A DNA stretch of 36,919 bases from an uncultured Oscillospiraceae bacterium (GCA_964418735.1 CAYQMY010000001.1:1-36919); one strand, 5' to 3'. Counted from the stretch's first letter, positions 1,363 through 24,635 are shown. Numbers and translations are program-made. The notes: generated by a model not told the origin, from the sequence alone.

Positions 1363-1406
1363 TTTGTCACATCAGAGTCAAATATTGAAGAAAGGTGTTC
1401 GATTTT

Positions 1407-1754: not shown

Positions 1755-1872
1755 CAGTTAACTGAATTATAGTGCGTGTTGCCTGCCCAGCGGGTAACAC
1801 GCAGCACATGCACAATATGTGACCATTATATATGGTTGAACTTGTGTTTAAGCAAAAGGAAGGGTGATAAAA

Positions 1873-2664: not shown

Positions 2665-2665
2665 T

Positions 2666-3604: not shown

Positions 3605-3645
3605 CTTTACGTGGCGCAAATTAATAATTTTGGAGTGAAATAACA

Positions 3646-4584
3646 ATGGGAAAGAAAGTATTCGTAGATTTGTCACATCCGTTTAGTGCGGAAATACCGC
3701 GCTGGCCATATTTTGACAAGCCGGTAATTGATAATAACCACACCATGGCAAAGGGCGGAGTTCTGACACAGAAGATTACCTGCACCATGCACACGGGCAC
3801 ACACGCCGATGCTCCCCGTCACGTTATGGAAAAGGAATTCGACGGCAGAAGAGCCCGTTACACCCACGAAATGCCTGTTGACGCTTACACCGGTGATGCC
3901 GTGTGCCTTCCGATAGAGGTTGAGCGCTGGGGACTTATCGGACCGGAGCATCTTGAAGCGGCCTGCAAAAAGGTCGGCATCAAGCCGGAAGAGCTTGAGG
4001 GCATGGTCGTCTGCCTCAACACAGGAATGCACCGCAAGTTTGATGATTCCAAGGAGTACTATCACTATTCCTGCGGAACGGGTGTTGAAGCCGGAAAATG
4101 GTTTGTCAAGCACAAGGTTAAGTGCGTCGCTATGGACAGCCAGGCACTGGATCATCCGCTGCACACCGCGATGGGCAATAACGGAATGACCCGCATGAAC
4201 CTTTTAGGCGCTTCGGGCAAACCCATCACCGAGGAGTACGCAGAGCAGTTTGGCGAAGAGGCTTATGCCGAATTTGATAAAGAGGTCTACATCAAGCTTC
4301 ACGGCAAGGAAGCCTATGACAAGAAGTTCGGAGATTTAGAGGAGCTTGGCTGCTGGGGCACTTGGGAGCCCTGCCATAAGCAGATGCTGGGCCACGGCAT
4401 AGTCGGCGTTGAAAACCTCGGCGGAGATTTGGATAAGGTCTCCGGAAAGCGCTTCCGTTTCTACTGCTTCCCGCTTCGATGGTATCTGGGCGACGGCTCC
4501 ATGGTTCGCTGCGTAGCCGAAATCGACGAGGGCGATATAAATGACGTTCCTGACAGGACCTATACCTACGGCGGAAATATTTAG
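3646..4584 (+). CDS. cyclase-family metal-dependent hydrolase (kynurenine formamidase-like fold); candidate dihydrophloroglucinol cyclohydrolase by context
   Basis: It carries the HTGTHADAPRH metal-binding motif (HxGTHxDxPxH) typical of the putative-cyclase family. A GGAG lies upstream of the ATG. Confidence 0.8.
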   Translation: MGKKVFVDLSHPFSAEIPRWPYFDKPVIDNNHTMAKGGVLTQKITCTMHTGTHADAPRHVMEKEFDGRRARYTHEMPVDAYTGDAVCLPIEVERWGLIGPEHLEAACKKVGIKPEELEGMVVCLNTGMHRKFDDSKEYYHYSCGTGVEAGKWFVKHKVKCVAMDSQALDHPLHTAMGNNGMTRMNLLGASGKPITEEYAEQFGEEAYAEFDKEVYIKLHGKEAYDKKFGDLEELGCWGTWEPCHKQMLGHGIVGVENLGGDLDKVSGKRFRFYCFPLRWYLGDGSMVRCVAEIDEGDINDVPDRTYTYGGNI

Positions 4585-4620
4585 GTAAACACTGAATTTT
4601 ATTAAAAAGGAGAACTTAAA

Positions 4621-5466
4621 ATGGCAGATATTAAAAATAAGAGAATTATAACCGTTGCCACGACGGGAGCTTGGCCAACAAAGGATAACACTCCGAATGT
4701 GCCTATAGAGCCGGCTGAAATTGCCGAGGAAATCTATAATTGCTGGAAAGCTGGCGCGGCGATTGCTCACATCCATTGCAGAGACAACGAAGGAAAGGCT
4801 GCAATGATTTTTGAGAAGTTTGAGGAGACGGTAAAACTTCTGCGTGCCAAAAAGGACTGTGACATAATAATCAACCTCACCACCTCGGGCGGTGTTAACC
4901 TCCTTGAGGAGGACAGAATAAAGCCTTTCTACGAGCTTGTGCCGGATATGGCCTCCTATGACTGCGGAACTATGAACTGGCAGAATGTCACGGTATTCGA
5001 GAACAATCCCAAGTTCCTTGAAAAGCTCGGAACACTTATGCAGGAAAAGGGAGTCAAGCCTGAAATTGAGGTTTTTGATCCCGGTATGATTTACAACGCA
5101 GGATATCTTTTGAAAAAGGGCTTTATTAAAGCGCCGCTCCACTTCCAGTTTTGCATGGGCGTGCCCGGCGGAATCGGAGCTTCGACTAAAAACCTCGTAT
5201 TCATGAAGGACACGATGGAAGCGGTAGCACCCGGCTCCACATGGTCCGCGTTCGGCGTTGGCGCTGGAGCAATGGAAATTCTTTACGCGACTATAGCAAT
5301 GGGCGGTAATATCCGTGTGGGCATGGAGGACAATGTCTATTACAAAAAGGGCGTTTTGGCGGACAGCAACATGCAGTTTGTTTCCCGTGCAAAGCGGATT
5401 ATAGAGGAATTCGGCTGCGAAGCGGCTACGCCCGCCGAAGCCAGAGAAATACTTGGCCTTAAATAA
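4621..5466 (+). CDS. beta-keto acid cleavage enzyme (BKACE/DUF849, Kce family); candidate triacetate acetoacetate-lyase by context
   Basis: The N-terminus ITVATTGAWPTKDNTPNVPIEPAEIAEE, the IAHIHCRD motif (His-x-His zinc ligands) and IRVGMEDN (Glu ligand) are hallmarks of the 3-keto-5-aminohexanoate cleavage enzyme family. An AAAGGAGAA RBS is present. Confidence 0.85.
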   Translation: MADIKNKRIITVATTGAWPTKDNTPNVPIEPAEIAEEIYNCWKAGAAIAHIHCRDNEGKAAMIFEKFEETVKLLRAKKDCDIIINLTTSGGVNLLEEDRIKPFYELVPDMASYDCGTMNWQNVTVFENNPKFLEKLGTLMQEKGVKPEIEVFDPGMIYNAGYLLKKGFIKAPLHFQFCMGVPGGIGASTKNLVFMKDTMEAVAPGSTWSAFGVGAGAMEILYATIAMGGNIRVGMEDNVYYKKGVLADSNMQFVSRAKRIIEEFGCEAATPAEAREILGLK

Positions 5467-5582: not shown

Positions 5583-6773
5583 GTGAAAGAAATATATATA
5601 GTAAACTGCTGCAGAACTGCCGTAGGCAGTTTCGGAGGAAGCTTAAAAGATACGAAGGCAGCGGAATTGGGTGCTGTCGTGATTAAGGAAGTTTTGGAAC
5701 GCAGCGGTGTAAAGGCCGAGCAGGTAGATGAGGTTGTGTTCGGATGTGTGCTTACGGCTGGACAGGGACAGAATGTTGCCCGTCAGGCCGCAATAGGGGC
5801 TGGTCTGCCCGTAGAGGTTCCTGCATTTACGCTGGATATGGTCTGCGGCTCCGGAATGAAAGCTGTCATTGAGGCAGCGAGAGCGATAATCGCGGGAGAT
5901 GCCGATATTGTTGTTGCGGGCGGTACCGAAAACATGTCCGCCGCACCATATGCCGTACCTGCTGCCCGCTGGGGCGCAAGAATGGGTGAGAGCAAAATGG
6001 TTGACACTATGGTCAACGACGCGCTTTGGGATGCTTTCAACAATTACCACATGGGCATTACCGCCGAAAACGTGTGCCAGCAGTGGGGCCTCACGCGTGA
6101 AGAGCTGGATGAGCTTGCACTTTCCTCTCAGGTTAAAGCGGGCGCCGCAAAAGCTGCCGGAAAATTTGAAAATGAAATAGTGCCTGTAGCAATCAAGACG
6201 AAAAAAGGTACATTAAGCTTTGAGGCCGATGAGTACCCGAGAAGCGATACCAGCGCGGAAATGCTTGCAAAGCTAAGGCCCGCTTTTAAAACCGACGGGG
6301 GCAAGGTGACAGCCGGAAACGCCTCCGGAATCAACGACGGAGCAGCGGCTATTCTGGTCGCATCGGAAGAAGCTGTTAAAAAATACGGACTGAAACCAAT
6401 GGCAAAGCTTGTAGGCTGGGGACAGGGCGGAGTAGACCCAAAGATCATGGGAGTCGGGCCGGTGCCTGCGTCGAAAAACGCTCTCAAAAAAGCTGGGCTG
6501 ACGATTTCGGACATCGACCTTGTGGAAGCGAACGAGGCTTTTGCCGCGCAGGCTCTTGCCGTGTCACGGGAACTGGGCTTTGACATGAAAAAGGTCAACG
6601 TAAACGGTGGAGCGATTGCCATAGGTCATCCTGTTGGTGCCTCCGGTGCTCGCATTATTGTTACTCTCCTCCATGAGATGCAGAAGCGGCCGGACGCAAA
6701 GCGCGGACTCGCAACACTTTGTATCGGCGGAGGAATGGGAACAGCGACCGTATTTGAAAAGTGCGGTTCATAA
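5583..6773 (+). CDS. atoB: acetyl-CoA C-acetyltransferase (thiolase II)
   Basis: It has the nucleophile Cys motif [21 protein letters not shown] (His) and CIGGGMG (the second catalytic Cys). The GTG start lies 7 nt after GGAGG. Confidence 0.93.
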
Positions 6774-6792: not shown

Positions 6793-7482
6793 ATGCCAAA
6801 GTTTATTACACTTAAGGAAGCTGTCGCCATGATCCCGGACGGGGCGTCAATAATGGTGGGCGGTTTTATGGGTTGCCGCAATCCGCACAATGTCATCGAT
6901 GAACTGTCGAAAAGCGGAAAGGGCAACTTTACACTGATATGCAACGACGGCGCGAAGCCCGGCGGCCCCACTGGCGAGGAGTATTACGGTGTAGCCAAGC
7001 TTATACATAATCACCAGGTTAAGCATCTGGTTGCGACACATGTGGGCCTCAATCCCGAGGTTGGAGCTCAGATGAACGACGGGTCGATGAAGGTCGACCT
7101 GATTCCCCAAGGCTCATTTGCTGAAATGATACGTGCCGGGGGAGCCGGACTCGGAGGCGTGCTAACGCCGACGGGCGTCGGAACCATAATTGAGGACAAC
7201 AAGGAATTCACCCATTCCGTACAGGAAATCGACGGAAAGAAGTATCTGCTGATGAGACCGATACGCGCTGATTTTGCTCTTATCAGCGGCTTTAATGTGG
7301 ATAAAGCGGGCAACGTTTGGTACAAGGGCGCTACCCGCAACTTCGCTCTCGCGATGGCGACAGCAGCGGATGTGGTTATTGTTGAGGCCGACAATGTCGT
7401 CGAGATCGGCGAAATAGAGCCTGAAAACGTAATGACGCCGGGTGTTATCGTGGATTATGTCATTGACGGGGGTAAAGCCTAA
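6793..7482 (+). CDS. atoD: 3-oxoacid/acetoacetate CoA-transferase subunit A
   Basis: MPKFITLKEAVAMIPDGASIMVGGFMGC is a typical subunit A N-terminus. The ATG at 6793 follows AGGAGGAAA. The ORF-track start at 6634 would overlap the thiolase by 140 nt. Confidence 0.9.
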   Translation: MPKFITLKEAVAMIPDGASIMVGGFMGCRNPHNVIDELSKSGKGNFTLICNDGAKPGGPTGEEYYGVAKLIHNHQVKHLVATHVGLNPEVGAQMNDGSMKVDLIPQGSFAEMIRAGGAGLGGVLTPTGVGTIIEDNKEFTHSVQEIDGKKYLLMRPIRADFALISGFNVDKAGNVWYKGATRNFALAMATAADVVIVEADNVVEIGEIEPENVMTPGVIVDYVIDGGKA

Positions 7483-8141
7483 TGGAAAAAGAGAAGATAA
7501 AAAGCTATATTATCGCCCGTGCCGCGAAGGAATTAAAGGACGGCGATGTAGTTAACCTTGGAATAGGTATGCCAACAATGATTCCATCGTTCCTTCCGGA
7601 AAACGTTAAGGTCACAGTTCAGGCCGAAAACGGTCTGATGGGAGTCGTACCCTGTGTGGGGGAATCCTTGGAGCACAGCCTTTACAGCGTCGACGCGGGT
7701 GCTACGCCTGTTATGGTATCGCCCGGCGGGTGCTATTTTGATTCGTGTGTATCCTTCGGCCTCATCAGGGGCGGACACATAGACGCTACAATGCTGGGTG
7801 CGCTTGAGGTTGACGAGAAGGGCAATATTTCAAACTGGATTATACCTGGCAAAAAGCTTCCCGGCATGGGCGGTGCCATGGATCTCGTGGTGGGAGCCAA
7901 AAAGGTAATCGTCACAATGGAACATACCCAAAAGGGGGAGCCCAAGATACTTAAAAATTGCCGGTTGCCCTTGACGGCGCTTAATTGCGTAGACTTGATT
8001 ATCACGGAAATGGGTGTAATGGAGGTTACGGATAAGGGTCTTGTGCTTACGGAAATAAACCCCGAGTATACACCGGAAGAGGTGCAGAGGGTTACCGAGG
8101 CCGAGCTCATTATTTCTCCCGAGCTTAAACCCATGGCCTGA
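7482..8141 (+). CDS. atoA: 3-oxoacid/acetoacetate CoA-transferase subunit B
   Basis: The catalytic glutamate motif is AENG (VQAENGLMG). The start overlaps the subunit A stop (TAATG), which suggests translational coupling. Confidence 0.9.
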   Translation: MEKEKIKSYIIARAAKELKDGDVVNLGIGMPTMIPSFLPENVKVTVQAENGLMGVVPCVGESLEHSLYSVDAGATPVMVSPGGCYFDSCVSFGLIRGGHIDATMLGALEVDEKGNISNWIIPGKKLPGMGGAMDLVVGAKKVIVTMEHTQKGEPKILKNCRLPLTALNCVDLIITEMGVMEVTDKGLVLTEINPEYTPEEVQRVTEAELIISPELKPMA

Positions 8142-8253: not shown

Positions 8254-9762
8254 ATGTCTGATAAGGTATATATTGAATCGCAAAACACACTGCCTGTTTA
8301 CGACGAGTGCGACATTCTTGTCGTAGGCGGCGGCTCGGCAGGACATTCGGCGGCAATAGCAGCAGCGCGCGCGGGCTCGAAGAACATCATTCTAATGGAG
8401 CGTTACGGCTACATGGGCGGCGATGTTACGGGCGGCTACGTCATCATGGTGCCGAAGCTCTCATGGTATGGCAAGTCCTTCGTGCGCGGCATTCAGGAGG
8501 AATGGTTCACAAGAATGAATCCTATACCAAACGCTGTTCTGGGACCCGACCTCAGCAAAATCGGCAAGGACGACGACCAGGCGCTTATTGGTACATGGAC
8601 TCGTATCCATGGCTGCGTCAGTGAAAGCGAGCCTAAGCGGCTCGTGCGCGCTGTCTATTATGAGCCGAACCAGCTGAAAATCGAAATGGACAAAATGCTC
8701 CTTGAGCACAAGGATGCTATCCGCGTAATGTGCCACAGCTGGGGCACAAAGCCGATAATGGATGGAAACGAGGTCAAGGGCGTTATCTTTGAAAGCAAGG
8801 AAGGACGCAAGGCTATCTTGGCAAAGACTGTTATCGACGCCACCGGAGACGGCGACATTTTCAAACAGACAGGCGCTCCGTTCTCAACTCTTGCCGACGG
8901 GGAAACACGTTCAAGCACCACGGCTCTCGTATGGCGCATAGGCGGAGTAAACTATGATCTTTTCTATGAATGGCAGAAAGCAAATCCGAATGAATTTACT
9001 GGGCTGCGCCGAAGCTTACCCAAGATCGCGGGCTTCCAATGCGCTCCGCTCCCAAGCGCACAAAACGATATCTGCTGGGTAAACAACTGGCATCCGAATC
9101 GTGACTGCGCAACGATAAAGGACGCAACCGAAACTGAAATGAATACAAGAAATACCATGCGCGACGTGCTGGACTACCTCAAGGAGGTTTGCCCAGTAGC
9201 GTTCAGAAACTCATTCATATATGATATAGCGCCGCAGCTCGGCACACGCGGCAGTTGCCGCCTGAAGGGCGAATACGTTATTACATCAAACGATTTTGCA
9301 TTTGCGACAAAGCACGATGACGTTATCGCTTGGCACTCAACTATATGTATGATAAACGACTGCGCTCCCGTTGAAATTCCTTACCGCTCGCTGCTGCCTC
9401 AGAAGGTTGAAAACCTGCTTGCGGCGGGCCGCCATATCTCCGCTGACAATGTGGCTATTGACTGGGTTAACCTGATACCACAGTGCGTGGGCACCGGCCA
9501 GGCCGCCGGCATTGCTGCTGCAGTAGCCGCAAAGGACGGCGTAAACGTTCGCAATGTGGATATCCGCAAGGTGCAGAACATTCTAATAGATCAGGACGTT
9601 CCGCTGCCCCGAAACGACCGTGTCGACAAGTCCTACACCGAGGTTTGTGAGGCTTATGAATACGGGCTTTATACCGAGCTTGCAAGAAAAGCAAAGGCCG
9701 ATGCCGAGGGACTTAGAGAATATCGCCAATCCAGCATTCCGACTGTTCCCAGTAATCATTAA
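8254..9762 (+). CDS. FAD-dependent oxidoreductase (FAD_oxidored/PF12831-like), substrate unknown
   Basis: It has the N-terminal dinucleotide fold DILVVGGGSAGHSAAIAAARAG ... ERYGYMGG. TAGGAGAAAG precedes the ATG. Confidence 0.75.
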   Translation: MSDKVYIESQNTLPVYDECDILVVGGGSAGHSAAIAAARAGSKNIILMERYGYMGGDVTGGYVIMVPKLSWYGKSFVRGIQEEWFTRMNPIPNAVLGPDLSKIGKDDDQALIGTWTRIHGCVSESEPKRLVRAVYYEPNQLKIEMDKMLLEHKDAIRVMCHSWGTKPIMDGNEVKGVIFESKEGRKAILAKTVIDATGDGDIFKQTGAPFSTLADGETRSSTTALVWRIGGVNYDLFYEWQKANPNEFTGLRRSLPKIAGFQCAPLPSAQNDICWVNNWHPNRDCATIKDATETEMNTRNTMRDVLDYLKEVCPVAFRNSFIYDIAPQLGTRGSCRLKGEYVITSNDFAFATKHDDVIAWHSTICMINDCAPVEIPYRSLLPQKVENLLAAGRHISADNVAIDWVNLIPQCVGTGQAAGIAAAVAAKDGVNVRNVDIRKVQNILIDQDVPLPRNDRVDKSYTEVCEAYEYGLYTELARKAKADAEGLREYRQSSIPTVPSNH

Positions 9763-9805
9763 CAAATTATTTTGGAACGGGCAATATAGAAAGGAATAGT
9801 AGTAT

Positions 9806-10300
9806 ATGGATTTTGTTATGAACACAGAGGGCGAATACGGCAAGTACATGGTTCAGGAGTTAAAAGCGCCGAAGTTTTCGCCCGGGTTTGAAGAATTCTA
9901 TAATACCTTCGCGAAGAGGGTTCTGTGGGTTGACAGCAATGTTGTTCCGGGCGCATTTCAATTCAGCTCCTCTTGGTATATGAAGGCATCGGATGTACGC
10001 CCCCTGATAAAGCATGACGAGCATTTACATGATGTTGACGAGCTTATCGGCTTTTACGGCTCAAATCCGGAAGATCCGAACGATCTCGGCGGCACAATAG
10101 AGATAGGCATAGGCGGCGAGACGCACCGTATCACGAAAAGCACGCTGATTTTTCTCCCCGCCGGACTTAAGCATTTGCCGCTTTCTATTATAGAGCTACA
10201 TCGCCCCATCTTTCATTTCTCAGTTGTAATGTCCCCGGTTTACAGCACTACTCACACAAATACCGGTGAAACGAGTGTGCTGAACCAGCCACGCGATTAA
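9806..10300 (+). CDS. metal-site cupin-like protein, paralog A (unknown function)
   Basis: It has the HLHDVDE-LIGFYG motif (HxHxxxE cupin motif 1) and FLPAGLKHLP (motif 2 His). It is clearly homologous to the next ORF (GFYGS.P.DP.NLGG ... RPIFHFSVVM). Confidence 0.7.
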   Translation: MDFVMNTEGEYGKYMVQELKAPKFSPGFEEFYNTFAKRVLWVDSNVVPGAFQFSSSWYMKASDVRPLIKHDEHLHDVDELIGFYGSNPEDPNDLGGTIEIGIGGETHRITKSTLIFLPAGLKHLPLSIIELHRPIFHFSVVMSPVYSTTHTNTGETSVLNQPRD

Positions 10301-10499
10301 GAAATATTAACCAAAAGAACCGTTGATTAATTCGACAATCGGCGGATGAGCAGATTAATTTCCTCAATTTCGCAAAAAGCAATGCTGATACATACTGTAT
10401 TCCTGCGTTTTTTTGATCGAACTGATAAATTTCTCTGCATCATCCCTCAATGCGATTTAATCAGCGGTATTTTTATTTTTCGTGAAGGGAAAATTTGTT

Positions 10500-10976
10500 A
10501 TGCCAATCAATACTGACGGTAAGCATGGCAATCTTGTCATGCAGGATTTGATATTGCCCGTAACGCATACAACTCCCGCTGCTACGGAGGCCTATGCGCG
10601 TTTTGGTAAGCGCTTGCATTGGGTCGACGGCAATAATATGCCCGGCGCATTTCAAATGAACACCTCGTGGTGGTATAAGGCAAACCGAGAATCCGTACTA
10701 TCAAATACCGAAAGCCCTGTAGGAAGACCGCATACGCACAGCTATCCCGAAATACTGGGTTTTTACGGCAGCGACCCCGATGACCCGGATAATCTCGGAG
10801 GAGAGGTAGAGCTCTATTTAGACGGAGAAGTGCAAGTTATCACAAAAAGCAGCATGGTTTTTATTCCGCCGAATATGCCGCACTGCCCTTTACTAGTGAA
10901 CCGTGTTGACCGGCCAATATTTCATTTTTCAGTTGTGATGAACAATGAATATACCTTTAGCCGAGATAACGGGTGA
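10500..10976 (+). CDS. metal-site cupin-like protein, paralog B (unknown function)
   Basis: It has PHTHSYPE-ILGFYG (HxHxxxE) and FIPPNMPHCP. I prefer the ATG at 10500, about 9 nt after GAAGGGA, over the GTG at 10482. Confidence 0.7.
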   Translation: MPINTDGKHGNLVMQDLILPVTHTTPAATEAYARFGKRLHWVDGNNMPGAFQMNTSWWYKANRESVLSNTESPVGRPHTHSYPEILGFYGSDPDDPDNLGGEVELYLDGEVQVITKSSMVFIPPNMPHCPLLVNRVDRPIFHFSVVMNNEYTFSRDNG

Positions 10977-11027
10977 GCGCATTATTAAACAAATAGTATA
11001 TTGTCAAGTATAAGGAGAGTGATAGAA

Positions 11028-11636
11028 ATGAAGATAATCCGTGGCATATCCAGGTTTTTTACATGGCTTTGCATGGGCTTTATAGCGGCCCTCATGCTGC
11101 TTATGGTAGCGGAGGTTCTGGACCGAGCAATTTTTAACAGGTCAATTATGGGTTCTACCGAGTGGGCGCAGGTGCTGCTGCTTTGCAACATGACAGCACT
11201 GAGCTCCTCAATCCTCTGCAACCGTCAAATTAAAATTGACATGGTGACCTCCAGGCTCAGCCCCAAAGCACAGGTCATAATTGACACCGTAATGCTGACG
11301 CTGACCTTTGCTACCATAGCTTTCATTTCATGGCAGCAGCTCAGTTACACCATTGAGAGCTTTACGAACAAGATTTTCTATAATACCATAGGCCTTCCCC
11401 AGTGGCCGTTTATAGCTATGTTCACATTTGCTTATGCAGTTGGTGCGCTGACCACCCTTTCTCTTGTCGTAAGGAAAATAGCTTCTATGGCTAGCGGCAA
11501 TTGGGAGCTTGAGGCGAAGCTTGAAGACATGGACGAGATATTTGTATTCGGCAGTAAAAAAAATGCTGAAATGCAGGGCGTCAATAGAGATAATGCCTCC
11601 GACGGTTCGGAAGGCGGAAAGGGGGACGAAAAATGA
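11028..11636 (+). CDS. dctQ: TRAP transporter small permease (DctQ-type) with a hydrophilic acidic C-terminal tail
   Basis: The product has four hydrophobic segments and sits directly before and overlapping (ATGA at 11633) a DctM-type large permease. The ATG at 11028 lies 8 nt after AAGGAGAG. Confidence 0.75.
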   Translation: MKIIRGISRFFTWLCMGFIAALMLLMVAEVLDRAIFNRSIMGSTEWAQVLLLCNMTALSSSILCNRQIKIDMVTSRLSPKAQVIIDTVMLTLTFATIAFISWQQLSYTIESFTNKIFYNTIGLPQWPFIAMFTFAYAVGALTTLSLVVRKIASMASGNWELEAKLEDMDEIFVFGSKKNAEMQGVNRDNASDGSEGGKGDEK

Positions 11637-12931
11637 GTCCGGAGCTTATCGGCCTTCTTGGCATTATTGCACTACTCGTTCTGATGGCACTGAAAATGTG
11701 GGTGGGTGCGGCCCTGACGCTTGTGAGCGTCATAGGTATAATCATCCTCAGAAATTTAGACGTAGCCATGGCTGTTTCAGGGGCGTCGGCGTTTACAAAC
11801 CTGAATACATATACCTTTACTGTTATCCCTATGTTTACCCTTATGGGCATGGTAATTGCTGAAAGTACTATGGGAAAGGACCTTTACGCCGCGGCTTACG
11901 CATGGGTAGGGCGTTTCAGAGGTGGTCTTGCCTCGGCAACTATAGTGGCCTGCGGTGTATTGGGTGCTATATGCGGTTCGACACAGGTGGCCGTGCTCGT
12001 TATGTCCCGTGTTGCAATGCCCGAGATGAAAAAGAACAATTATGAAGAATCGTTGGCAGCCGGTTGCGTTGCCGCAGGAGCGCCGCTCAGCATACTGATA
12101 CCGCCCAGCATGGGGTTCATAATGTACGGCATACTAACGGAAAATTCAATTGGCAAGCTTTTTGCGTCGGGTATTGGTGTCGGCGTACTACAGATGCTCC
12201 TATATATCGTGGTTGTTGTGATCTTGTGCCGTCTAAAGCCGGAGCTTGGACCGCGCGGACCGAAGCTTGAGCTTAAGATAATGCTCAAAACGCTGCTCAA
12301 AATCCTGCCGGTGATGCTCCTCATGCTTCTCGTGCTTGGCGGAATATACTTAGGATTCTTCACCACTACCGAGGCGGGGGCTGTAGGTGCTCTTGGTGCA
12401 ATAGTAATCTCTTTTGCGTTCCGCCAGATAACCGTTAAAAAGTTTAAAAAGGCGCTTAAGGATACCGCTGTGCTCTGCGGAATGGTGTTCTTCCTCGTTG
12501 CCGCTACTTATTTGTTCGTCACCTTTATGAGCCTTAGCCGCGTTCCGATGCTGCTCGCGAAAGTAATTATCGGCATGGCGGTCCCCAAGTGGGTACTGGC
12601 CTGTGCGCTCATAGTTTTATACTTTATTCTTGGCATGTTCCTTCCGGAGGTGCCCATGGTGGCTCTTACCATTCCCGTGTTTTATTCGGCACTGGTTAAA
12701 GTGGGCTTCGACCCAATCTGGCTTGGCGCATTTGTAGTTAAGCTTATGGCTGTCGGCTCCATTTCGCCTCCGGTCGGAATGACTGTGTTCACGATGGCCG
12801 GGGTAAGCGGCATAAAGGTTGAGAAAATATTCAAGGGCGTTCTGCCGTTTCTTGCTGTCGACGTTATAATACTCGCGCTTATGATCATTTTCCCGCAAAT
12901 AGCGACTTTCATCCCCAGCCTGATGAAGTAA
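11633..12931 (+). CDS. dctM: TRAP transporter large permease (DctM-type)
   Basis: It is a 432-aa polytopic membrane protein with DctM-like segments (GGLASATIVACGVLGAICGS, PPSMGFIMYGILTE). It is flanked by Q- and P-type partners. Confidence 0.85.
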   Translation: MSPELIGLLGIIALLVLMALKMWVGAALTLVSVIGIIILRNLDVAMAVSGASAFTNLNTYTFTVIPMFTLMGMVIAESTMGKDLYAAAYAWVGRFRGGLASATIVACGVLGAICGSTQVAVLVMSRVAMPEMKKNNYEESLAAGCVAAGAPLSILIPPSMGFIMYGILTENSIGKLFASGIGVGVLQMLLYIVVVVILCRLKPELGPRGPKLELKIMLKTLLKILPVMLLMLLVLGGIYLGFFTTTEAGAVGALGAIVISFAFRQITVKKFKKALKDTAVLCGMVFFLVAATYLFVTFMSLSRVPMLLAKVIIGMAVPKWVLACALIVLYFILGMFLPEVPMVALTIPVFYSALVKVGFDPIWLGAFVVKLMAVGSISPPVGMTVFTMAGVSGIKVEKIFKGVLPFLAVDVIILALMIIFPQIATFIPSLMK

Positions 12932-12971
12932 CTATTGAAGAAATAGTATAAAAATTAAGGGAGGAAAAACA

Positions 12972-14105
12972 ATGAAAAAACTACTGTCAATTATTCTTAG
13001 CGCGGTCATGCTGCTCTCACTTTTCAGTGCCTGCGGCAGCAAGCCGGTCACAAGCGCGCCCCCGGCGCAGAGCCCGCAGGCAAGTGCACAGCCTTCCGGA
13101 GCACCCAAGGATCTCGTCTATAACGGTCCCAAGATGGAGCTTACAGTCAATTTCTCCTCAGCAGAACCCGTAGCAAAGATTTATACCGATACTTTAAAGA
13201 GAATAACCGAGCGTACTGGAGGAAAAGTAACATTTGTTAATTATTTCAGCAACTCGCTTCTCTCCCCTGCCGAGGCGCTTAAGGGCGTCGGAACAGGCGT
13301 TTGCGACATCTCCGACGTCACAATGGCGAACTTCCCTGAACAGTTCGTATACAGCCAGCAGGTAATGAGCTACCCCTTCCTTGGCTTTACCAGCATTGCA
13401 ATGGCCTCCGATATTATGAACAAAAACATCTACAATAATAAGCTTATGATGGATGAGTTCAAGGCCGCGAAAGTCTATCCCTTATTCTTTTTAGGAGTAT
13501 GGGGAACAGCGATGGTACTAAAGAATGACGTTAAGATAACCACTCCTGATTCAGTTAAAGGACTTAAGCTCATTACAGACAACCGCATACTCAGCAAGTT
13601 CCTTGCCGACAAGGGAGCAACCCCTGTTGCACAGCCTCCCACGGAGTTTTTCTCCAGCATGAGCAACGGCGTTGTTGACGGAGTCATAAACGGTCTTCAC
13701 GTTGTAAACATTTTTGGAGCGCTTTCAATTGCAAAGACGGTTTACATGTTTGAGAGAAGCTTCTCGACTGGCTGCCGCGCTATCTGCATCAATGACGCAA
13801 AATGGAACAGCTTTGACAGCACTTTAAAGCAAATATTCACAGAAGAGATGCTGGGCGACCAGCTTATTACCGAAGGTGCGGCATACTGGAAGGTGTCTGA
13901 CCAGAGCCATCTCGACGATGCAAAAAAATGGAACATTCCGGTGAATTACATTAAGGGCGCAGATATGGAGGCATGGGCCGATGCTCTCAAGCCCTACGGA
14001 GACGAGACTTTGAAGCAGCTTAAAGACAAGGGCTATAAAGAGGTTGACAGTGTCCTTGAATTCTGGAAAAAATCAATATCTGAATACAACGGTAAGTACA
14101 AATAA
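12972..14105 (+). CDS. dctP: TRAP transporter solute-binding protein (DctP-type), lipoprotein
   Basis: A signal peptide with lipobox LFSACGS is followed by a Pro/Ser/Ala-rich linker and a periplasmic-binding-protein-like body. It is the last gene of the Q-M-P triplet. The RBS is AAGGGAGGAAA. Confidence 0.75.
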   Translation: MKKLLSIILSAVMLLSLFSACGSKPVTSAPPAQSPQASAQPSGAPKDLVYNGPKMELTVNFSSAEPVAKIYTDTLKRITERTGGKVTFVNYFSNSLLSPAEALKGVGTGVCDISDVTMANFPEQFVYSQQVMSYPFLGFTSIAMASDIMNKNIYNNKLMMDEFKAAKVYPLFFLGVWGTAMVLKNDVKITTPDSVKGLKLITDNRILSKFLADKGATPVAQPPTEFFSSMSNGVVDGVINGLHVVNIFGALSIAKTVYMFERSFSTGCRAICINDAKWNSFDSTLKQIFTEEMLGDQLITEGAAYWKVSDQSHLDDAKKWNIPVNYIKGADMEAWADALKPYGDETLKQLKDKGYKEVDSVLEFWKKSISEYNGKYK

Positions 14106-14156
14106 ACCATATAATACATAAACCATAATTTATATACATTTGGTTTAACAAACGAA

Positions 14157-14190
14157 GCGGGCTGAAAAATACTTTTCAGCCCGCTTTGTA
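14157..14190. terminator. bidirectional rho-independent terminator between convergent dctP and metF
   Basis: gcgggctgaaaa (14157-14168) pairs with ttttcagcccgc (14173-14184). T-rich tracts follow on both strands. Confidence 0.8.
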
Positions 14191-14213: not shown

Positions 14214-15098
14214 TTACTTAAGTCCGGAGAGCTTGAGAATGTCGGGAATCTTGGACTCCCAGCCAAGAGCCATGATGTGTACGCCCTGGCAGTAGTCCTT
14301 ACACTCTTTGATCAGACGGGCTGAAATCTCAACACCGGTGATGCCGGCCTTGGTCTTTTCCTTGTCGGCCTTAAGCTCCTCGATCATCTCGTCGGGAACG
14401 CTGATTCCGGCGACATTGGCGTTCATGTATTTAACCATGCCGACGTTCTTCGGAATAACGATTCCAAGCTGTACAGGTACGCCGAACTGCTTGGCTCTCT
14501 CCATGAATTTTATGAACTTCTCGGGCTCGTAAACAGCCTGAGTCTGGAAGTATTCAGCGCCGGCCTTAACCTTTGCTTCCATCTTTGCAAGCTGTACGTC
14601 AACGGAGTCGCTGCAGGGGGACACGACAGCGCCCTTAGAAAACTTCGGGGGCTCGCCGTCAAGCGGATTTCCGGCCATGTCTTCTCCACCCTCCATCTTC
14701 CTGATCATGTGCAGGAGGGATACGGAGTCCAGATCGAAAACAGGCTTTGCCTGAGGATTGTCACCAAGAGTGGTGTGGTCGCCGGTAAGGCAGAGAATAT
14801 TGTCAATACCGAACATAGCCGCGCTCAAAATGTCAGACATAAGACCAATGCGGTTCCTGTCACGGCAGGTCATCTGGAAAATCGGGTTGAGACCCTTATC
14901 CTTCAGAGCCTTGCATGTTGCCAAGGAGCCGAGACGCATAACGGAAGACTGGTTATCCGTTACGTTGACCGCATGGACGTTGCCCTTCAAAAATTCATCT
15001 GCTTCGTGCAGCAAATGATCAATATTATAGCCCTTAGGGGGGCCTACTTCAGCCGTAACTACAAATTCGCCGCGCTGAAATAACTCGGATAGCATCAT
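14214..15098 (-). CDS. metF: methylenetetrahydrofolate reductase catalytic subunit
   Basis: It has a typical MTHFR N-terminus and core (FVVTAEVGPPKG, AVNVTDN, MTCRDRNR, ILCLTGDH). It is followed in the operon by metV. An AAGGAG RBS is present. Confidence 0.9.
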   Translation of the reverse strand: MMLSELFQRGEFVVTAEVGPPKGYNIDHLLHEADEFLKGNVHAVNVTDNQSSVMRLGSLATCKALKDKGLNPIFQMTCRDRNRIGLMSDILSAAMFGIDNILCLTGDHTTLGDNPQAKPVFDLDSVSLLHMIRKMEGGEDMAGNPLDGEPPKFSKGAVVSPCSDSVDVQLAKMEAKVKAGAEYFQTQAVYEPEKFIKFMERAKQFGVPVQLGIVIPKNVGMVKYMNANVAGISVPDEMIEELKADKEKTKAGITGVEISARLIKECKDYCQGVHIMALGWESKIPDILKLSGLK

Positions 15099-15135
15099 TT
15101 CTTATCGCTCCTTATAAAAATTATCATTAGCAAAA

Positions 15136-15765
15136 TTAGGCCTCGTCCTGAGACTCTTTGAAGGGCTTCGCGTAATCGCGCACTTTTGCCTCGTATTTAA
15201 GAGTGTCGAGCTTGCCGAGCTTTTCGAGCTTGCGGTAAATACGCTCCCAGCCGCACTCCATGTCTTTGTTAACTTCGCACTTGCCGTTTTTCGCTCCGCC
15301 GCACTGACCGTTCACGAGGCTCTTTGAGCAGGCTGTTATCGGGCAGATTCCGCCGGTGCTGTTAAGATAGCATTCGCCGCACTGGCCGCAGTCAAACTCT
15401 AGCGGAGTAACGCCCTGGAAGCCCGGAAGCGGGCAGGTGTCACAGCAGGCGACGACTCTTTTGTTCTCGAGAAATGCCGCGACGGTCTGTACGCCGACGC
15501 CGCAGGAAAATACCAGTACCGTGTCAGCAGCTTCGATCTTATCTGCGAACTTTTTGAGCTGGAAACGCAGATTATCGGGATTGCAGATATAGTCTCTGGT
15601 AATTATTTCGGTTACATTTCCGCCTGCGGAAAGCTCCTTTTGAAGCTCTTCGGCCTCATGCTCGGGGAAATATACTTCCTTACAGCCGTGGCAGTTTATG
15701 ATAACGGTTTTTCCCTTTGCCAGAGCTTCGATGGTTTCCTTTGATTTCAGTTGGGTAATGAGCAT
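15136..15765 (-). CDS. metV: MetV (MTHFR C-terminal-like Cys-rich subunit)
   Basis: It has the Cys-rich block CGQCGECYLNSTGGICPITACSKSLVNGQCGGAKNGKCEV characteristic of MetV. Its ATG lies 1 nt after the rnfC2 stop. Confidence 0.85.
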   Translation of the reverse strand: MLITQLKSKETIEALAKGKTVIINCHGCKEVYFPEHEAEELQKELSAGGNVTEIITRDYICNPDNLRFQLKKFADKIEAADTVLVFSCGVGVQTVAAFLENKRVVACCDTCPLPGFQGVTPLEFDCGQCGECYLNSTGGICPITACSKSLVNGQCGGAKNGKCEVNKDMECGWERIYRKLEKLGKLDTLKYEAKVRDYAKPFKESQDEA

Positions 15766-15766
15766 T

Positions 15767-17728
15767 TTATTTACCCTCCCTTATAGCTTTTTTTCCGATT
15801 TTTATCATGGTGACAATCGGAATTTTAGACGAACAAATTGTCTGGCAGCATCCGCACTCGATGCAGTCCATAACGCTCTGGTCCTTAAAGCCCTGCCAGT
15901 TCGAGGTGCCGGCGTACTTGGTGAAGTACAGGGGCTTCAGCTCCATCGGACAAACGTCGGCGCAGCGGCCGCACTTGATGCAGGGATAGGGCTCAGAGGT
16001 GACAGGCTCAACTGCGATGACGCCGTTTGTGCCCTTCATTACGGGAACAGAAAGATCACTGAGCACAAAGCCCATCATCAGACCGCCCATTTTAATGGTT
16101 ACATCGTCAGTAGTTACGCCGCCGCAGTAGTCGACGAGCGCCTTGACGGGAGTACCGATTTTAACAATATAGTTGGCGGGGTTTTTGATTCTCTCGCCGG
16201 TCACGGTTACAACGCGCTCGATAAGCGGCATACCGGTTTTGATGGCGTCGGAAATGGCCTTGACGGTGCTGACGTTGCTAACAACCGCGCCAACATCGGC
16301 GGGCAGTCCGCCGGACGGAACGCTGCGTCCCAAAACCCTCTTGATAAGCATTTTTTCCGCGCCCTGCGGGTACTTGGTTTTAGCTACGACAACCTCGATG
16401 TTGTCTATATCGGCCGTCTTTGCCTGCATAACCTCGATAGCGTCGGGCTTGTTGTCTTCGATTGCGATGATGCCCTTTTCAGCGCCGGAAGCCTTAAGCA
16501 TAGCCTTAAGTCCGTAGATGATGTCATCTGCATACTCGACCATAACGCGGTGGTCGGCGGTGAGAAGCGGCTCGCATTCGCAGCCGTTGAGAAGAACGGT
16601 ATCGACCGGCTTCGGCGGCTTCATCTTGACGGAGGTCGGGAAGCCTGCGCCGCCCATGCCAACGATGCCCTTTTCGCGGACAAGCTCGACGAGCTCATCT
16701 GCAGTCATGGAATCAAGATCTCCGGCGGGCCTTACGGACTCGTGCAGAGTGTTCTTTCCGTCAGACTCGATTACAACGGACATTACGTTTCCGTTTGTGG
16801 CATGAAGTCTCGGCTCAACAGCGAGTACCTTACCGCTGACGCTTGAGTGAATGTTTGCGCTGATAAAGCCCTTGGCCTCACCGATCTTCTGGCCGACCTT
16901 GACGAGGTCTCCGGCGGCAACAATCGGCTCTGCGGGTGCGCCGGCGTGCTGACACATGGGTATAACAACGGTATGTACCTCGGGGAAGACCTTAAGAGAG
17001 AGGTGCTCGCTGTATTCCTTGTGCTCCGAGGGGTGAATTCCGCCGTAGTAACCCTCAAAACGCTTTTCTCGGACAGATTTGACGTATTCGTTGATTAGCT
17101 TGAAGTTTACCTTTGAGTAGTCGCGAACCTGAACCGGCTGATTGAGAAATTCCTGAAGCATACCTTGCTTGTCGAGCTTCTCATAGATCTTCTGCCAGCC
17201 GCAGTCCATGTTCTTGTTGACTTCGCATTTGCCGTTTTTTGCGCCGCCGCACTGACCGTTGATGAGGCTCTTCGAGCAGTCAACAATGGGACAGATGCCG
17301 CCGGTAAGGTTTAAGTAGCACTGGCCGCAGGCGTCGCAGAGCGTTTTTGTCAGTGCCATGCCGTGATTGCCCCTGAAAGCTGTAGAATCGCTGGCAGCAT
17401 AAACAGGCTTTTCTGATAAATCGGCAACCGTCTGTATGCCGAGACCGCAGGAAATAACAAAAATGTTATCTACGCCCTCAGGCAAAACGGACTGAAGCTT
17501 CTTCTCAGTCGTTGTCTTGTTGCACAGAAAATCTACCTTTGCGCAGCCTACGAAAGTTTTGCCCTGCTCCTTGGCAAGCTCCTCAAATTTGTCGCATTCC
17601 GGCTCTTCAAATGTTTCAAGTTCCTTGAAGCATTTGTTGCAGGCTACAACAAAAATGTTTTGCTTATCGGCAAGTAGTGGGGCCAACTCTTCAGCCCTTT
17701 TCAGCTTGAACTTGGTGTAATCTTCCAA
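15767..17728 (-). CDS. rnfC2: RnfC-like NADH-binding iron-sulfur flavoprotein with an N-terminal MetV-like module (RnfC2-type MTHFR subunit)
   Basis: The N-terminal roughly 200 aa are paralogous to MetV (CDACGQCYLNLTGGICPIVDCSKSLINGQCGGAKNGKCEV). The central region has the VGMGGAGFPT motif (RnfC/NuoF-type nucleotide/FMN site). The C-terminus has two ferredoxin motifs, CIKCGRCADVCP and CIECGCCQTICS. A TTG start lies 7 nt after GGGGGG. Confidence 0.8.
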   Translation of the reverse strand: MEDYTKFKLKRAEELAPLLADKQNIFVVACNKCFKELETFEEPECDKFEELAKEQGKTFVGCAKVDFLCNKTTTEKKLQSVLPEGVDNIFVISCGLGIQTVADLSEKPVYAASDSTAFRGNHGMALTKTLCDACGQCYLNLTGGICPIVDCSKSLINGQCGGAKNGKCEVNKNMDCGWQKIYEKLDKQGMLQEFLNQPVQVRDYSKVNFKLINEYVKSVREKRFEGYYGGIHPSEHKEYSEHLSLKVFPEVHTVVIPMCQHAGAPAEPIVAAGDLVKVGQKIGEAKGFISANIHSSVSGKVLAVEPRLHATNGNVMSVVIESDGKNTLHESVRPAGDLDSMTADELVELVREKGIVGMGGAGFPTSVKMKPPKPVDTVLLNGCECEPLLTADHRVMVEYADDIIYGLKAMLKASGAEKGIIAIEDNKPDAIEVMQAKTADIDNIEVVVAKTKYPQGAEKMLIKRVLGRSVPSGGLPADVGAVVSNVSTVKAISDAIKTGMPLIERVVTVTGERIKNPANYIVKIGTPVKALVDYCGGVTTDDVTIKMGGLMMGFVLSDLSVPVMKGTNGVIAVEPVTSEPYPCIKCGRCADVCPMELKPLYFTKYAGTSNWQGFKDQSVMDCIECGCCQTICSSKIPIVTMIKIGKKAIREGK

Positions 17729-17875
17729 TTATATTCCCCCCTAGACAATGTAAAAAGATCCTCGCTATATTAATAAAATATTTCGCGAAAATAAACAATG
17801 GCGCGCTCTTCCAGAGCGCCTGAACTAAGCGTACATACGCTAAGTTCCTACATGTACAATATATTAACAGCCGTT

Positions 17876-17905
17876 ATTATATCATAAAATGTTTTTTATC
17901 AACAA
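17876..17905 (-). promoter_or_regulatory. candidate sigma-A promoter for rnfC2-metV-metF
   Basis: On the minus strand the sequence reads TTGTTGATA-N-TGATATAAT (extended -10). It would give a 5' UTR of about 140 nt. This is read by eye only. Confidence 0.35.
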
Positions 17906-17996
17906 TAATCAGAAAAAGTTCGGTTGATTTTTATATAAAAACAAAATAATTTTCATTTGGAACTGGCGAATGTGTTCAGCATATGGATTTATAGGC

Positions 17997-18021
17997 AAAA
18001 ACCGCCGGTTTAAAGGCGGAC
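17997..18021 (-). terminator. candidate rho-independent terminator after the radical SAM gene
   Basis: On the minus strand, a CCGCC/GGCGG stem is followed by TTTTTG. The stem is short, only 5 bp. Confidence 0.45.
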
Positions 18022-18048
18022 TTTGTATTTCGAATGCTTGAACAGCAT

Positions 18049-19056
18049 TTATAAGCGTTCCAGCAGCATTTCAGCAAACTCGTCCAGATCCTCGGGCATG
18101 CCCTGCTTTAGCTCCCCGCATTTTGAGCAGAAGGGGCGCGCGTTGCGTTCTCCGCGCAGAAACATGGATTGAAGTCTCCATAGGTGGATGCTGTTCCAGA
18201 CCTTTTTGGGAGACTTGTAAGCACCGAACTCATTTCCAAGAGGCAGGACGCGCTTCCAGTCAAAGCGGCACATGCTGTAGCTGCCATCGGAGTTTATCGC
18301 AAACTCATAAAAAATATAGGGACAGACCTTAACTTCATGGGCTTCATAGCCGAGTATGCCCACATTTTCGTTTATTTCCACCTTTTCCTGCTTGAAGGTG
18401 GGCCAATAATCGATGGCATGCTCAACGGATATGCCGTCGGTTATGTCGCCGAAGGTGTCGTAAAATTGCTGTATTTGTTCCTCTGTCAAAATGTCGCCGT
18501 TTATTTTTATGTTCATTTCACACTGCTTGCGGTTTTCGTAAAAAAAGGCGATGTTTTCGACAAATTTTTCGTAGTCTATCTTGTATCGTGAAAAATCCTC
18601 ATACTGCTCAGCATTTATGCCCTCAACTGATATGTTGATACGGTCAAGTCCAGCTTCTATTATTTTTAAGCTCAGCTCAGGAGTCAAAAGCGAGCCGTTT
18701 GTGGTGGTGTCAACCTTTTCGCAGCAGCCGGATTCCTTTGCATAGCGCACCATGTCGGGGAAATGGGGATTAAGCAGGGGCTCACCGTCCTTATATAGGC
18801 GTATTACCCTTACCTTGTCATCAAATTCGCAAACGCCGTCGATAATGCGCTTATACAGCTCGAAGTCCATTATTCCGTGTCCGCGGCCCCTGGTGGATTT
18901 CATTATCTCGGGGTCACCCGTCGGACAGAATTTGCACTGGAAGTTGCACTTATCGCAGGGGTCAATATATATGACATAAGGCGTTCTAAGTGGAATGGCG
19001 TCCTTAAGCTCATTGCGATCGTATAAATCTATGCGTGGTTTTATCTGCGCTTTCAT
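18049..19056 (-). CDS. radical SAM protein with a C-terminal Cys-containing (SPASM/twitch-like) extension
   Basis: It has the CNFQCKFCP motif (CxxxCxxC) near the N-terminus and a GEPLL motif. C-terminal cysteines occur in VCPYIFYEF ... SMCRFDW ... PFCSKCGE. A GGAGG RBS is present. Confidence 0.85.
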   Translation of the reverse strand: MKAQIKPRIDLYDRNELKDAIPLRTPYVIYIDPCDKCNFQCKFCPTGDPEIMKSTRGRGHGIMDFELYKRIIDGVCEFDDKVRVIRLYKDGEPLLNPHFPDMVRYAKESGCCEKVDTTTNGSLLTPELSLKIIEAGLDRINISVEGINAEQYEDFSRYKIDYEKFVENIAFFYENRKQCEMNIKINGDILTEEQIQQFYDTFGDITDGISVEHAIDYWPTFKQEKVEINENVGILGYEAHEVKVCPYIFYEFAINSDGSYSMCRFDWKRVLPLGNEFGAYKSPKKVWNSIHLWRLQSMFLRGERNARPFCSKCGELKQGMPEDLDEFAEMLLERL

Positions 19057-19688: not shown

Positions 19689-19721
19689 TTTAACGTTCCT
19701 TTCTTGTATGTGTACTATTGA

Positions 19722-20495: not shown

Positions 20496-20508
20496 TTGTT
20501 CCTCCCAA

Positions 20509-21744: not shown

Positions 21745-21814
21745 TTTTTTTCCTCCTCAAGTATTATTAATAAGCGAAACGAAGACATTTGTTTATATTA
21801 TACTACATTATTTC

Positions 21815-24603: not shown

Positions 24604-24635
24604 GCCGCTATTTGTTTAGCAGAAAGGAAATACTT

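Follow-up and report, generated by a model that had tools for sequence, protein, structure and literature searches.

What do six genes do that stand directly behind a phloroglucinol fermentation pathway in an uncultured Oscillospiraceae bacterium? They occupy positions 8254–14105 of a stretch of 36,919 nucleotides (GCA_964418735.1, CAYQMY010000001.1:1-36919), which was analyzed over its whole length and which we call the window. They encode a flavoprotein of Pfam family PF12831 (FADox), two small metal cupins (cupA and cupB), and the three components of a tripartite ATP-independent periplasmic (TRAP) transporter (DctQ, DctM, and DctP). None of the six matches the PGR, DPGC, TfD, or TAL families, in agreement with an earlier note on this DNA that placed them outside the described four-enzyme phloroglucinol pathway. 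The same note saw in them a feeder route, in which a precursor that is carboxylated or acidic in some other way would be turned into phloroglucinol or an intermediate of its pathway. This idea survives in outline, through the behavior of the genes as a functional unit and their links to phloretin-hydrolase (Phy) and phloroglucinol genes, but its carboxylated substrate does not. We tentatively propose, with somewhat less than even confidence, that the six genes form a separable uptake and first-conversion cassette of a LysR-controlled polyphenol island. Literature searches on PF12831, resorcinol reductase, phloroglucinol together with TRAP, the FAD oxidoreductases of Flavonifractor, and cupins together with phloroglucinol returned nothing that describes the cassette. 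It represents an uncharacterized variation on a familiar theme, anaerobic polyphenol catabolism.

The most robust observations concern which genes travel together. An importer accompanies FADox, a PF12831 flavoprotein accompanies the cupin pair, and a Phy module accompanies the FADox/TRAP lineage; in addition, the cassette of the window lineage is attached directly to the phloroglucinol core. Because of these couplings and this attachment, we read the cassette as the entry to an island for flavonoids or other acyl-phloroglucinols. The context surveys used a crude caller of open reading frames (ORFs) and BLAST clustering, and many contigs were short; related metagenome-assembled genomes (MAGs) share ancestry, and we count arrangements, not loci. 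A FADox scan of GTDB species representatives gave 79 loci (64–91% identical), which were searched by tblastn with all window proteins. For the cupins, a metagenome scan with a cupin alignment gave 80 loci. Individual loci are cited below by number.

The six genes recur in the same order in relatives. In the window lineage the cassette lies directly after the phloroglucinol core (L010, L028, L088, and L001), and the junction between CtfB and FADox is kept in three lineages (L010/L002-4, L028, and L088), with gaps of approximately 90–112 bp and no terminator. All loci with both cupA and cupB have a PF12831 flavoprotein close by. It adjoins the cupin pair in the window, L001, L002-4, L009, L010, and L088; in L103 (truncated twin, L096) cupA and cupB are separated by a transporter gene, and FADox comes directly after cupB. 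In L089 a divergent LysR gene separates the cupin pair from two flavoproteins about 1 kb away; these are only approximately 25% identical to the FADox of the window but clearly match PF12831 (E 1e-88 to 1e-90). The flavoproteins near cupin pairs range from 25% to 100% identity with the FADox of the window. L129 has a single cupin beside a PF12831 flavoprotein. The cassette of L009 keeps the order FADox-cupA-cupB-DctQMP, followed directly after DctP by a 2-hydroxyacid dehydrogenase gene; its context, described below, shows that the cassette is separable from the phloroglucinol core.

A second set of links leads to Phy. The DctP of the window belongs to a subfamily that lacks a characteristic arginine, and FADox is adjacent in eight of the nine distinct contexts of this subfamily, the sole exception being L171. 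The contexts with FADox are those of the window, L009, and L010 (with cupins), the L015 group (with Phy), and L168–L170 and L175 (with pairs of MmgE/PrpD genes). A Phy homologue, a ferredoxin, and an APS-reductase-like flavoprotein lie near FADox in L015, L017, L025, and L056; L015, L017, and L025 also hold a second hydrolase copy and an arginine-less TRAP system. L168 joins FADox, TRAP, Phy, ferredoxin, and flavoprotein in yet another order. In all, the FADox/TRAP lineage is linked to the Phy-ferredoxin-flavoprotein module in four arrangements. In a neighbor-joining tree of FADox, the window clade (window, L009, L088, and L010, joined by L011 and L038) stands next to the Phy-linked FADox genes. 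Of 86 FADox genes, 11 have a 2-hydroxyacid dehydrogenase gene no more than 9 kb away, and all 11 belong to the region of the tree that surrounds the window clade.

The commonest neighbors of FADox are an unnamed multi-pass transporter of approximately 497 amino acids, directly upstream at 27 of the 79 loci, and a LysR gene (29 of 79). The membrane protein (e.g., L041 211–1704; L103 3913–5397), which a LysR gene usually accompanies, has no Pfam match even at E 0.5 and probably represents a family of transporters, so far undescribed, that serves the FADox substrate. Further neighbors of FADox include FAD_binding_2 flavoproteins, MarR, PrpD-like proteins, OYE-type enoate reductases, URO-D-like proteins, and 2-hydroxyacid dehydrogenases; the neighborhoods of the FADox and cupin families are rich in the last three, and in esterases. 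All four of these enriched kinds are typical of anaerobic polyphenol metabolism. There are also sister cassettes in which FADox and DctQMP are followed by two MmgE/PrpD-family genes, sometimes with a URO-D-like gene (L168 3406–10940; L169; L170 5235–13969; L175 2093–10620). Their regulators are of the IclR or MerR type, and in L170 the arginine-less DctP is duplicated. Functionally, the PrpD-like pair may stand in for the cupins.

What might the transporter carry? On the plus strand, DctQ (11028–11636; PF04290, E 7.5e-13), DctM (11633–12931; PF06808, E 5e-87; TIGR00786 above its cut-off), and DctP (12972–14105; PF03480 and NF037995; lipoprotein signal ...LFSAC) are adjacent, with DctQ and DctM overlapping, as in TRAP systems of the DctP type. 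From this type of transporter the earlier note had concluded that the substrate is carboxylated or acidic. In the window DctP, however, the column equivalent to SiaP Arg-147 (GxKxR) is Ile, reading GLKL-I-TD. The subfamily is narrow (approximately 50 clusters at 42% identity or more), and all of these clusters have I, V, G, M, A, L, or S in this column, while the Arg is kept in all distant DctPs aligned and in the two nearest crystal structures (PDB 4n6d and 4pgn). According to Fischer et al., 96.8% of DctPs retain this Arg, which acts as a selectivity filter for carboxylates (PMC4646407). The remaining 3% or so include DctPs with hydrophobic pockets or a non-carboxylate ligand (PMC4646407). 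Because the carboxylate-clamp Arg is replaced throughout the subfamily, the main premise of the acidic-precursor argument is removed.

FADox (8254–9762, plus strand; 502 amino acids) is an FAD-dependent oxidoreductase that matches PF12831 over the whole profile (positions 1–416 of 416; 243.8 bits against a cut-off of 27; E 5e-72). Its N-terminal FAD-binding motif, VVGGGSAG (residues 23–30; GxGxxG), is the only Rossmann motif, with no second dinucleotide-binding domain, and G25, G27, A29, and G30 are invariant among 22 homologues. The family is large (2,555 matches at E ≤ 0.001), with a mean column identity of 73% across Clostridia, and a homologue from a Sphaerochaeta MAG is still 70% identical. 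Some genomes have two or three paralogues. The hosts of the FADox and cupin families (Oscillospiraceae, Lachnospiraceae, Clostridiales, Dehalococcoidales, and Sphaerochaeta) are strict-anaerobe lineages from guts, rumen, and digesters. Comparison with NCBIfam gave no equivalog and only Rossmann-motif matches, and comparison with PDB sequences gave no full-length match, again only the Rossmann motif. With an AlphaFold model of moderate quality (pLDDT 70), Foldseek returned the generic GR2 single-domain FAD fold (TM approximately 0.35–0.39, identity 10–15%), the neighbors being geranylgeranyl reductase, FixC, and PHBH-type monooxygenases. All of these matches are generic, and we abandoned a direct functional assignment of FADox. 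A Pfam scan found no Oxidored_FMN, flavodoxin-type, or DAPG_hydrolase domain in any of the six genes. Tetrahydrodaidzein reductase (THDR; 486 amino acids, FAD-type; UniProt E7FL40) is a possible relative of FADox; this enzyme of the equol pathway is reportedly fumarate-reductase-like, with a mass of 52.5 kDa.

The two cupin genes, cupA (9806–10300; 164 amino acids) and cupB (10500–10976, alternative start 10482; 158 amino acids), are likewise on the plus strand. They are paralogues (43% identity, BLASTP E 6e-45) with intact metal sites, as the earlier note had it; of the length of 164 amino acids given there for both, only that of cupA stands, cupB most likely having 158. Both proteins carry HxHx3Ex6G and PxGxxH (HLHDVDE...PAGLKH in cupA; HTHSYPE...PPNMPH in cupB), and 29 aligned homologues all keep the metal ligands H73, H75, E79, and H123. 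A 3His-1Glu metal site is of the quercetinase type. No Pfam or NCBIfam entry matches cupA, and cupB stays below the Pfam Cupin_2 (PF07883) threshold (20.9 bits against a cut-off of 27.2). Since both fall below that threshold, we place them in an unnamed cupin family. The AlphaFold model (pLDDT 82) is a cupin barrel, i.e., a double-stranded beta-helix, and nearly all of its 45 Foldseek matches at E ≤ 0.001 are cupins. The nearest are the epimerase MarH, the Fe epimerase/lyase 7eqk, KdgF, and DddK, at 10–20% identity and TM 0.4–0.6 for the best structural neighbors. A direct functional assignment was rejected here also: there is no family match, the best E-value against PDB sequences is 0.036, and the Foldseek matches are generic small cupins.

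A profile search of 1.84 billion representative proteins found 684 clusters (50% identity) of the cupin family at E ≤ 1e-10. Many of the homologues are proteins of 280–330 amino acids with two full copies of the domain, and in four of the four fused proteins checked each copy has both HxHxxxE and PxGxxH. In view of these fused homologues and of the adjacency of the two genes, we read cupA and cupB as a split bicupin, the products of which probably form a heterodimer. Single cupins of the family also occur beside OYE-type reductases and esterases. That the cupins are specific to phloroglucinol clusters is ruled out, as single ones stand beside a glycyl-radical enzyme and in housekeeping contexts. 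In a separate group of loci (L172 4068–9179; L155, L159, L164, L165, and L166), a single family cupin lies in an operon of BKACE, 3-hydroxyacyl-CoA dehydrogenase (3HCDH), cupin, and CoA-transferase genes, preceded by LysR. There is no PGR or cyclase inside this operon, and in L172 a divergent cyclase gene lies approximately 4.5 kb upstream. The operon is compact and widespread, and it resembles a modified lower pathway that would handle a beta-hydroxy or beta-keto acid.

Is the array one transcription unit? An ORF listing and Pfam and NCBIfam scans confirm the content and coordinates of the six genes given in the earlier note, all on the plus strand. Its intergenic distances (112, 43, 199, and 51 bp, a 4-bp overlap, and 40 bp) hold once the start codons are refined by ribosome-binding sites, which are good for both cupB (ATG at 10500, after GAAGGG) and DctQ (ATG at 11028, with AAGGAGA; alternative start 11001). 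The single canonical terminator that it described is confirmed too and lies at 14152–14189 (plus strand), as a bidirectional intrinsic hairpin with a 17-bp stem (8 G-C pairs) and a T-tract. This hairpin closes the array and is the only strong terminator between 1300 and 14400. The number of genes from PGR, a short-chain dehydrogenase/reductase (SDR) gene, to DctP, by contrast, is 13 and not 14; with two further genes upstream, 15 are co-directional. Judging from the single strand, the short gaps, and the absence of internal terminators, the array is probably co-transcribed. No Rfam match was found anywhere in the window, and a promoter scan gave background level only. In the CtfB-FADox spacer, an alignment with four relatives shows conservation of the ribosome-binding site only, with no conserved operator. 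The spacer between cupA and cupB (10301–10499; 199 bp) is AT-rich in the window and in the identical contig L001, and has no plus-strand promoter-like site, terminator, or Rfam match; it is only approximately 25–35 bp long in the relatives L009 and L010.

What stands in front of the cassette? The phloroglucinol core, assigned by Pfam family and entirely on the plus strand, begins with PGR (SDR; 1873–2664), which matches PDB 5g4k at E 2e-113. The title of that entry is generic; we take it to be the phloroglucinol reductase of Clostridium sp. ATCC BAA-442. There follow TfD (3-hydroxyacyl-CoA-dehydrogenase family; 2666–3604), DPGC ("cyclase" family; 3646–4584), TAL (BKACE; 4621–5466), a thiolase (5583–6773), and the CoA-transferase subunits CtfA (6793–7482) and CtfB (7482–8141). 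PGR, DPGC, TfD, and TAL constitute the published anaerobic phloroglucinol pathway of Clostridium scatologenes (mBio 2023; PMC10470551). Upstream of PGR, also by Pfam and on the plus strand, are a 119-amino-acid Cupin_2 protein (1395–1754) and the 3' part of a gene for an APS-reductase/fumarate-reductase-like flavoprotein (16–1362), which is cut by the window start.

The orthologous array of a digester MAG (DUPK01000016; L003/L010) begins with LysR, a homologue of DAPG/phloretin hydrolase (Phy), and an 81-amino-acid ferredoxin. It continues with a 559-amino-acid APS-reductase-like flavoprotein, Cupin_2, PGR, TfD, DPGC, TAL, CtfAB, FADox, cupA, cupB, and DctQMP. In L010 the part from LysR to the 559-amino-acid flavoprotein spans 564–4714. 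This full-length array indicates that the window starts inside a longer island, whose regulator and phloroglucinol-releasing hydrolase would lie immediately beyond the left edge of the window. The absence of a regulator, which the earlier note had reported, is an effect of the window edge: LysR heads the array in the closest full-length relative. The best PDB match of the 559-amino-acid flavoprotein is the alpha subunit of a PAPS reductase (8a8o, E 9e-30). The flavoprotein-ferredoxin pair is uncharacterized and recurs beside Phy in other genomes.

How could such an island work? Its order would be LysR, phloretin-hydrolase homologue, ferredoxin, APS-reductase-like flavoprotein, Cupin_2, PGR, TfD, DPGC, TAL, thiolase, CtfAB, FADox, cupA, cupB, and DctQMP. 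The TRAP system would import a phenolic compound, probably a non-carboxylate, our best guess being a flavonoid aglycone or another acyl-phloroglucinol precursor. FADox would carry out a redox step, most likely a reduction, using transient NAD(P)H or a low-potential donor such as the island ferredoxin. The putative cupA/cupB heterodimer, with its 3His-1Glu sites, could then catalyze an oxygen-independent, metal-assisted isomerization, epimerization, or ring-opening (retro-Claisen) reaction on a 1,3-dicarbonyl or enol intermediate. The phloretin-hydrolase homologue would cleave the product into phloroglucinol and an aryl acid, and the core would ferment the phloroglucinol to acetoacetate and acetyl-CoA. 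In this scheme we infer the substrate class, the direction of the redox step, the cupin reaction, and the heterodimer.

It is tempting to be more specific. One testable version is a flavonol/auronol branch, in which alphitonin would be cleaved to phloroglucinol and a hypothetical aryl-pyruvate. The enzymes that cleave alphitonin are not known, and a 3,4-dihydroxyphenylpyruvate intermediate has only been hypothesized (PMC11170127). In the boldest version, to which we give a rather small chance, FADox would represent a new class of oxygen-independent reductases of phenolic rings or of the flavonoid C-ring (resorcinol-type or alphitonin-cleaving), the split bicupin would open or isomerize its 1,3-dicarbonyl product, and the transporter would be the first TRAP system dedicated to neutral phenolics, a capacity that it would owe to the missing clamp Arg.

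Several observations weigh against a polyphenol cassette. The earlier note had called for a survey of co-occurrence with phloroglucinol genes; the outcome is positive in the window lineage and in the links to the Phy module, but in GTDB only 4 of the 79 FADox loci have cupins or phloroglucinol genes (L009, L010, and L028, and L038 with one cupin), which rules out that FADox is specific to phloroglucinol clusters. The commonest context of FADox is just the unnamed transporter and LysR. In L009, whose FADox is 90% identical, the cassette follows a MatE gene, with no core gene within 10 kb upstream. Some single cupins of the family stand among unrelated housekeeping genes. Elsewhere FADox and TRAP are paired with PrpD-like proteins and not with cupins, which could point to organic-acid substrates, and the loss of the Arg does not in itself prove that the DctP ligand is a non-carboxylate. 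The presence of the Phy module outside the window is predicted from relatives, and the proposed chemistry of FADox and the cupins is read from fold and context, no homologue being characterized.

The main rival, which we consider unlikely, is a parallel dearomatizing branch. FADox would be a ring reductase for resorcinol or a substituted phloroglucinol, the cupins would hydrolyze or epimerize a cyclic 1,3-dione, and the product would enter at TfD, TAL, Ctf, and thiolase, bypassing PGR and DPGC. Resorcinol reductase contains FAD and has a subunit of approximately 50 kDa. In favor of this branch, the cassette directly follows TAL, thiolase, and CtfAB; the BKACE-3HCDH-cupin-CoA-transferase operons contain single family cupins without PGR or DPGC; an arginine-less TRAP binding protein suits a neutral phenol; and FADox has a fold like that of geranylgeranyl reductases and FixC, enzymes that receive their electrons from protein donors. 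Resorcinol reductase is ferredoxin-dependent, and its action is followed by hydrolytic ring cleavage (PMC10470551). However, there is no resorcinol reductase sequence to compare: the literature we found describes no gene for it, and the one paper that mentions the enzyme names none. The array contains no acyl-CoA dehydrogenase or other gene for handling 5-oxohexanoate, the BKACE and 3HCDH genes are absent from most FADox contexts, and the linkage of the FADox lineage to Phy-type C-C hydrolases favors acyl-phloroglucinol substrates.

Could the six genes be merely adjacent to the phloroglucinol genes? As an independent cassette they would couple a substrate-inducible importer to a reductase, serving as an electron sink or in detoxification for a different compound of plant or host origin, with no flux into phloroglucinol. 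The unit of transporter, FADox, and LysR (27–29 of 79 loci), which comes with no other catabolic genes, is what one would expect of such a cassette, as are the missing core genes upstream of L009, the contigs of L089 and L103 with cupins, FADox, transporter, and LysR and no phloroglucinol genes, and the genomes with two or three FADox paralogues. Yet the CtfB-FADox junction is conserved in three lineages with short, terminator-free gaps, and the linkage of FADox/TRAP to Phy recurs in four different arrangements. We regard mere adjacency as quite unlikely.

The acidic precursor of the earlier note (phloroglucinol carboxylate, gallate, a hydroxybenzoate, or a ring-fission acid), imported by TRAP and then converted by FADox and the cupins, e.g., by decarboxylation, now appears distinctly improbable. 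It has on its side the MmgE/PrpD partners of the sister cassettes, whose known members act on polycarboxylates, and the second-nearest DctP structures (PDB 4pgn, 4pgp, and 4nap), whose names in the search output are generic. These three bind aromatic acids, as Vetting et al. reportedly described in 2015. DctP-type TRAP systems overwhelmingly carry organic acids (PMC4646407). Nevertheless, every member of the subfamily has a hydrophobic or small residue in the position of the clamp Arg, no decarboxylase family (UbiD, amidohydrolase-type, or similar) is present, and the recurrent partner is a phloretin-hydrolase-type enzyme, with neutral acyl-phloroglucinol substrates. Finally, an oxygen-dependent pair, with FADox as a group-A-like aromatic hydroxylase and cupA/cupB as a ring-cleaving bicupin similar to quercetinase or gentisate dioxygenase, could appeal to the Ni-quercetinase among the weak Foldseek matches of the cupin and to the single-domain flavin monooxygenases among those of FADox, but it is very unlikely, to the point of being negligible, because both families are found in lineages of strict anaerobes, and furthermore the array lies beside oxygen-sensitive functions (radical SAM, ferredoxins, and the MTHFR/RnfC-like cluster) and the structural matches are weak and generic (TM approximately 0.35–0.45).

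The remainder of the window contains several other genes. Directly downstream of the cassette, on the minus strand, 14214–19056 encodes a methylene-tetrahydrofolate reductase (MTHFR), a MetV-like DUF5981 protein, a 653-amino-acid fusion of DUF5981, RnfC/Nuo51-like, and 4Fe-4S parts, and then a radical-SAM/SPASM protein. The arrangement looks acetogen-type, and because URO-D-like genes are common near FADox elsewhere, the cluster may be connected to methyl groups from the O-demethylation of methoxylated aromatics. An operon at 19233–23220 (minus strand) encodes a GntP-family permease, a CoA-transferase of family III, an enoyl-CoA hydratase, and a MaoC dehydratase. Its substrate may be an organic or aryl acid; the aryl acid that polyphenol cleavage yields as a co-product is one conceivable candidate. 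A TM1586-type nitroreductase-family gene lies at 24579–25475. In a Eubacterium MAG (L005 15020–15832) another such gene stands approximately 4.5 kb from a lone cupA-type gene beside a glycyl-radical enzyme; this recurrence may be coincidence. A gene at 31517–33049 (minus strand), near an AraC regulator and a DUF2099 protein, encodes a 510-amino-acid protein that joins a DAO-type FAD oxidoreductase to a Rieske [2Fe-2S] domain at its C-terminus; it has no relation to the cassette.

Anaerobic polyphenol breakdown shapes the bioactive metabolites that reach the gut host, as well as the mobilization of phenolic carbon in anoxic soils and digesters. The cassette contributes three candidates. The first is a flavoprotein family that counts thousands of members in Oscillospiraceae and their relatives and mostly comes with an importer and a regulator of its own. 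The second is an unnamed cupin family (approximately 700–1,200 sequence clusters), split or fused as bicupins. The third is a TRAP binding-protein subfamily that has lost the residue believed to confine TRAP to organic acids. Transport of a neutral phenolic by this system would extend the range of substrates known for TRAP transporters. Should FADox and the cupins convert flavonoids or phenols, they would be non-homologous alternatives to FLR, CHI, and Fcr, beyond the reach of current metagenome screens for flavonoid-modifying enzymes.

How does the locus compare with known systems? All four enzyme families of the described phloroglucinol cluster are present in the window array, together with thiolase and CtfAB; the paper on that cluster names a regulator, a transporter of the MFS type, and a phloretin hydrolase found in some species, with no mention of PF12831, cupins, or TRAP (PMC10470551). 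In the resorcinol reductase/cyclohexanedione hydrolase route of fermenting clostridia, as in the dearomatizing rival, the ring of a meta-diphenol is reduced in a flavin-dependent, ferredoxin-linked step and then opened by hydrolysis (PMC10470551), but 5-oxohexanoate genes are not evident in the window array. The transporter has the same canonical Q, M, P order as SiaPQM, with overlapping Q and M, and its DctP falls among the rare 3% or so of arginine-less DctPs, such as Tp0957 and Csal_0678 (PMC4646407). With the small non-redox metal cupins (MarH, 7eqk, KdgF, and DddK) and the bicupin quercetinases, cupA and cupB share the barrel, the His-His-Glu-His site, and fused relatives. The window family differs from the small metal cupins in an extra N-terminal stretch of approximately 50 residues, and a shared substrate cannot be deduced. 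The FAD fold and GxGxxG are common to the GR2-type flavoproteins (geranylgeranyl reductase, FixC/EtfQO-like, and PHBH-type), among which the PF12831 branch is exceptionally conserved.

The closest parallel in logic is the gut pathway for flavones and flavanones in Eubacterium ramulus and Flavonifractor plautii (FLR, CHI, Fcr/EnoR, and Phy). Relatives of the window start their array with a Phy homologue, and the sequence of reducing the flavonoid, isomerizing or opening the C-ring, hydrolyzing, and fermenting phloroglucinol fits the gene content of the island. The window array differs in having no FMN-type FLR or OYE-type Fcr, and none of its genes is assigned as a chalcone isomerase, although no direct search for a CHI homologue was made. 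In their place the array offers the PF12831 flavoprotein and the APS-reductase-like flavoprotein with ferredoxin as candidate redox enzymes, and the cupin pair as candidate isomerase. If FADox and the cupins do these jobs, they are non-homologous replacements of the gut flavonoid enzymes.

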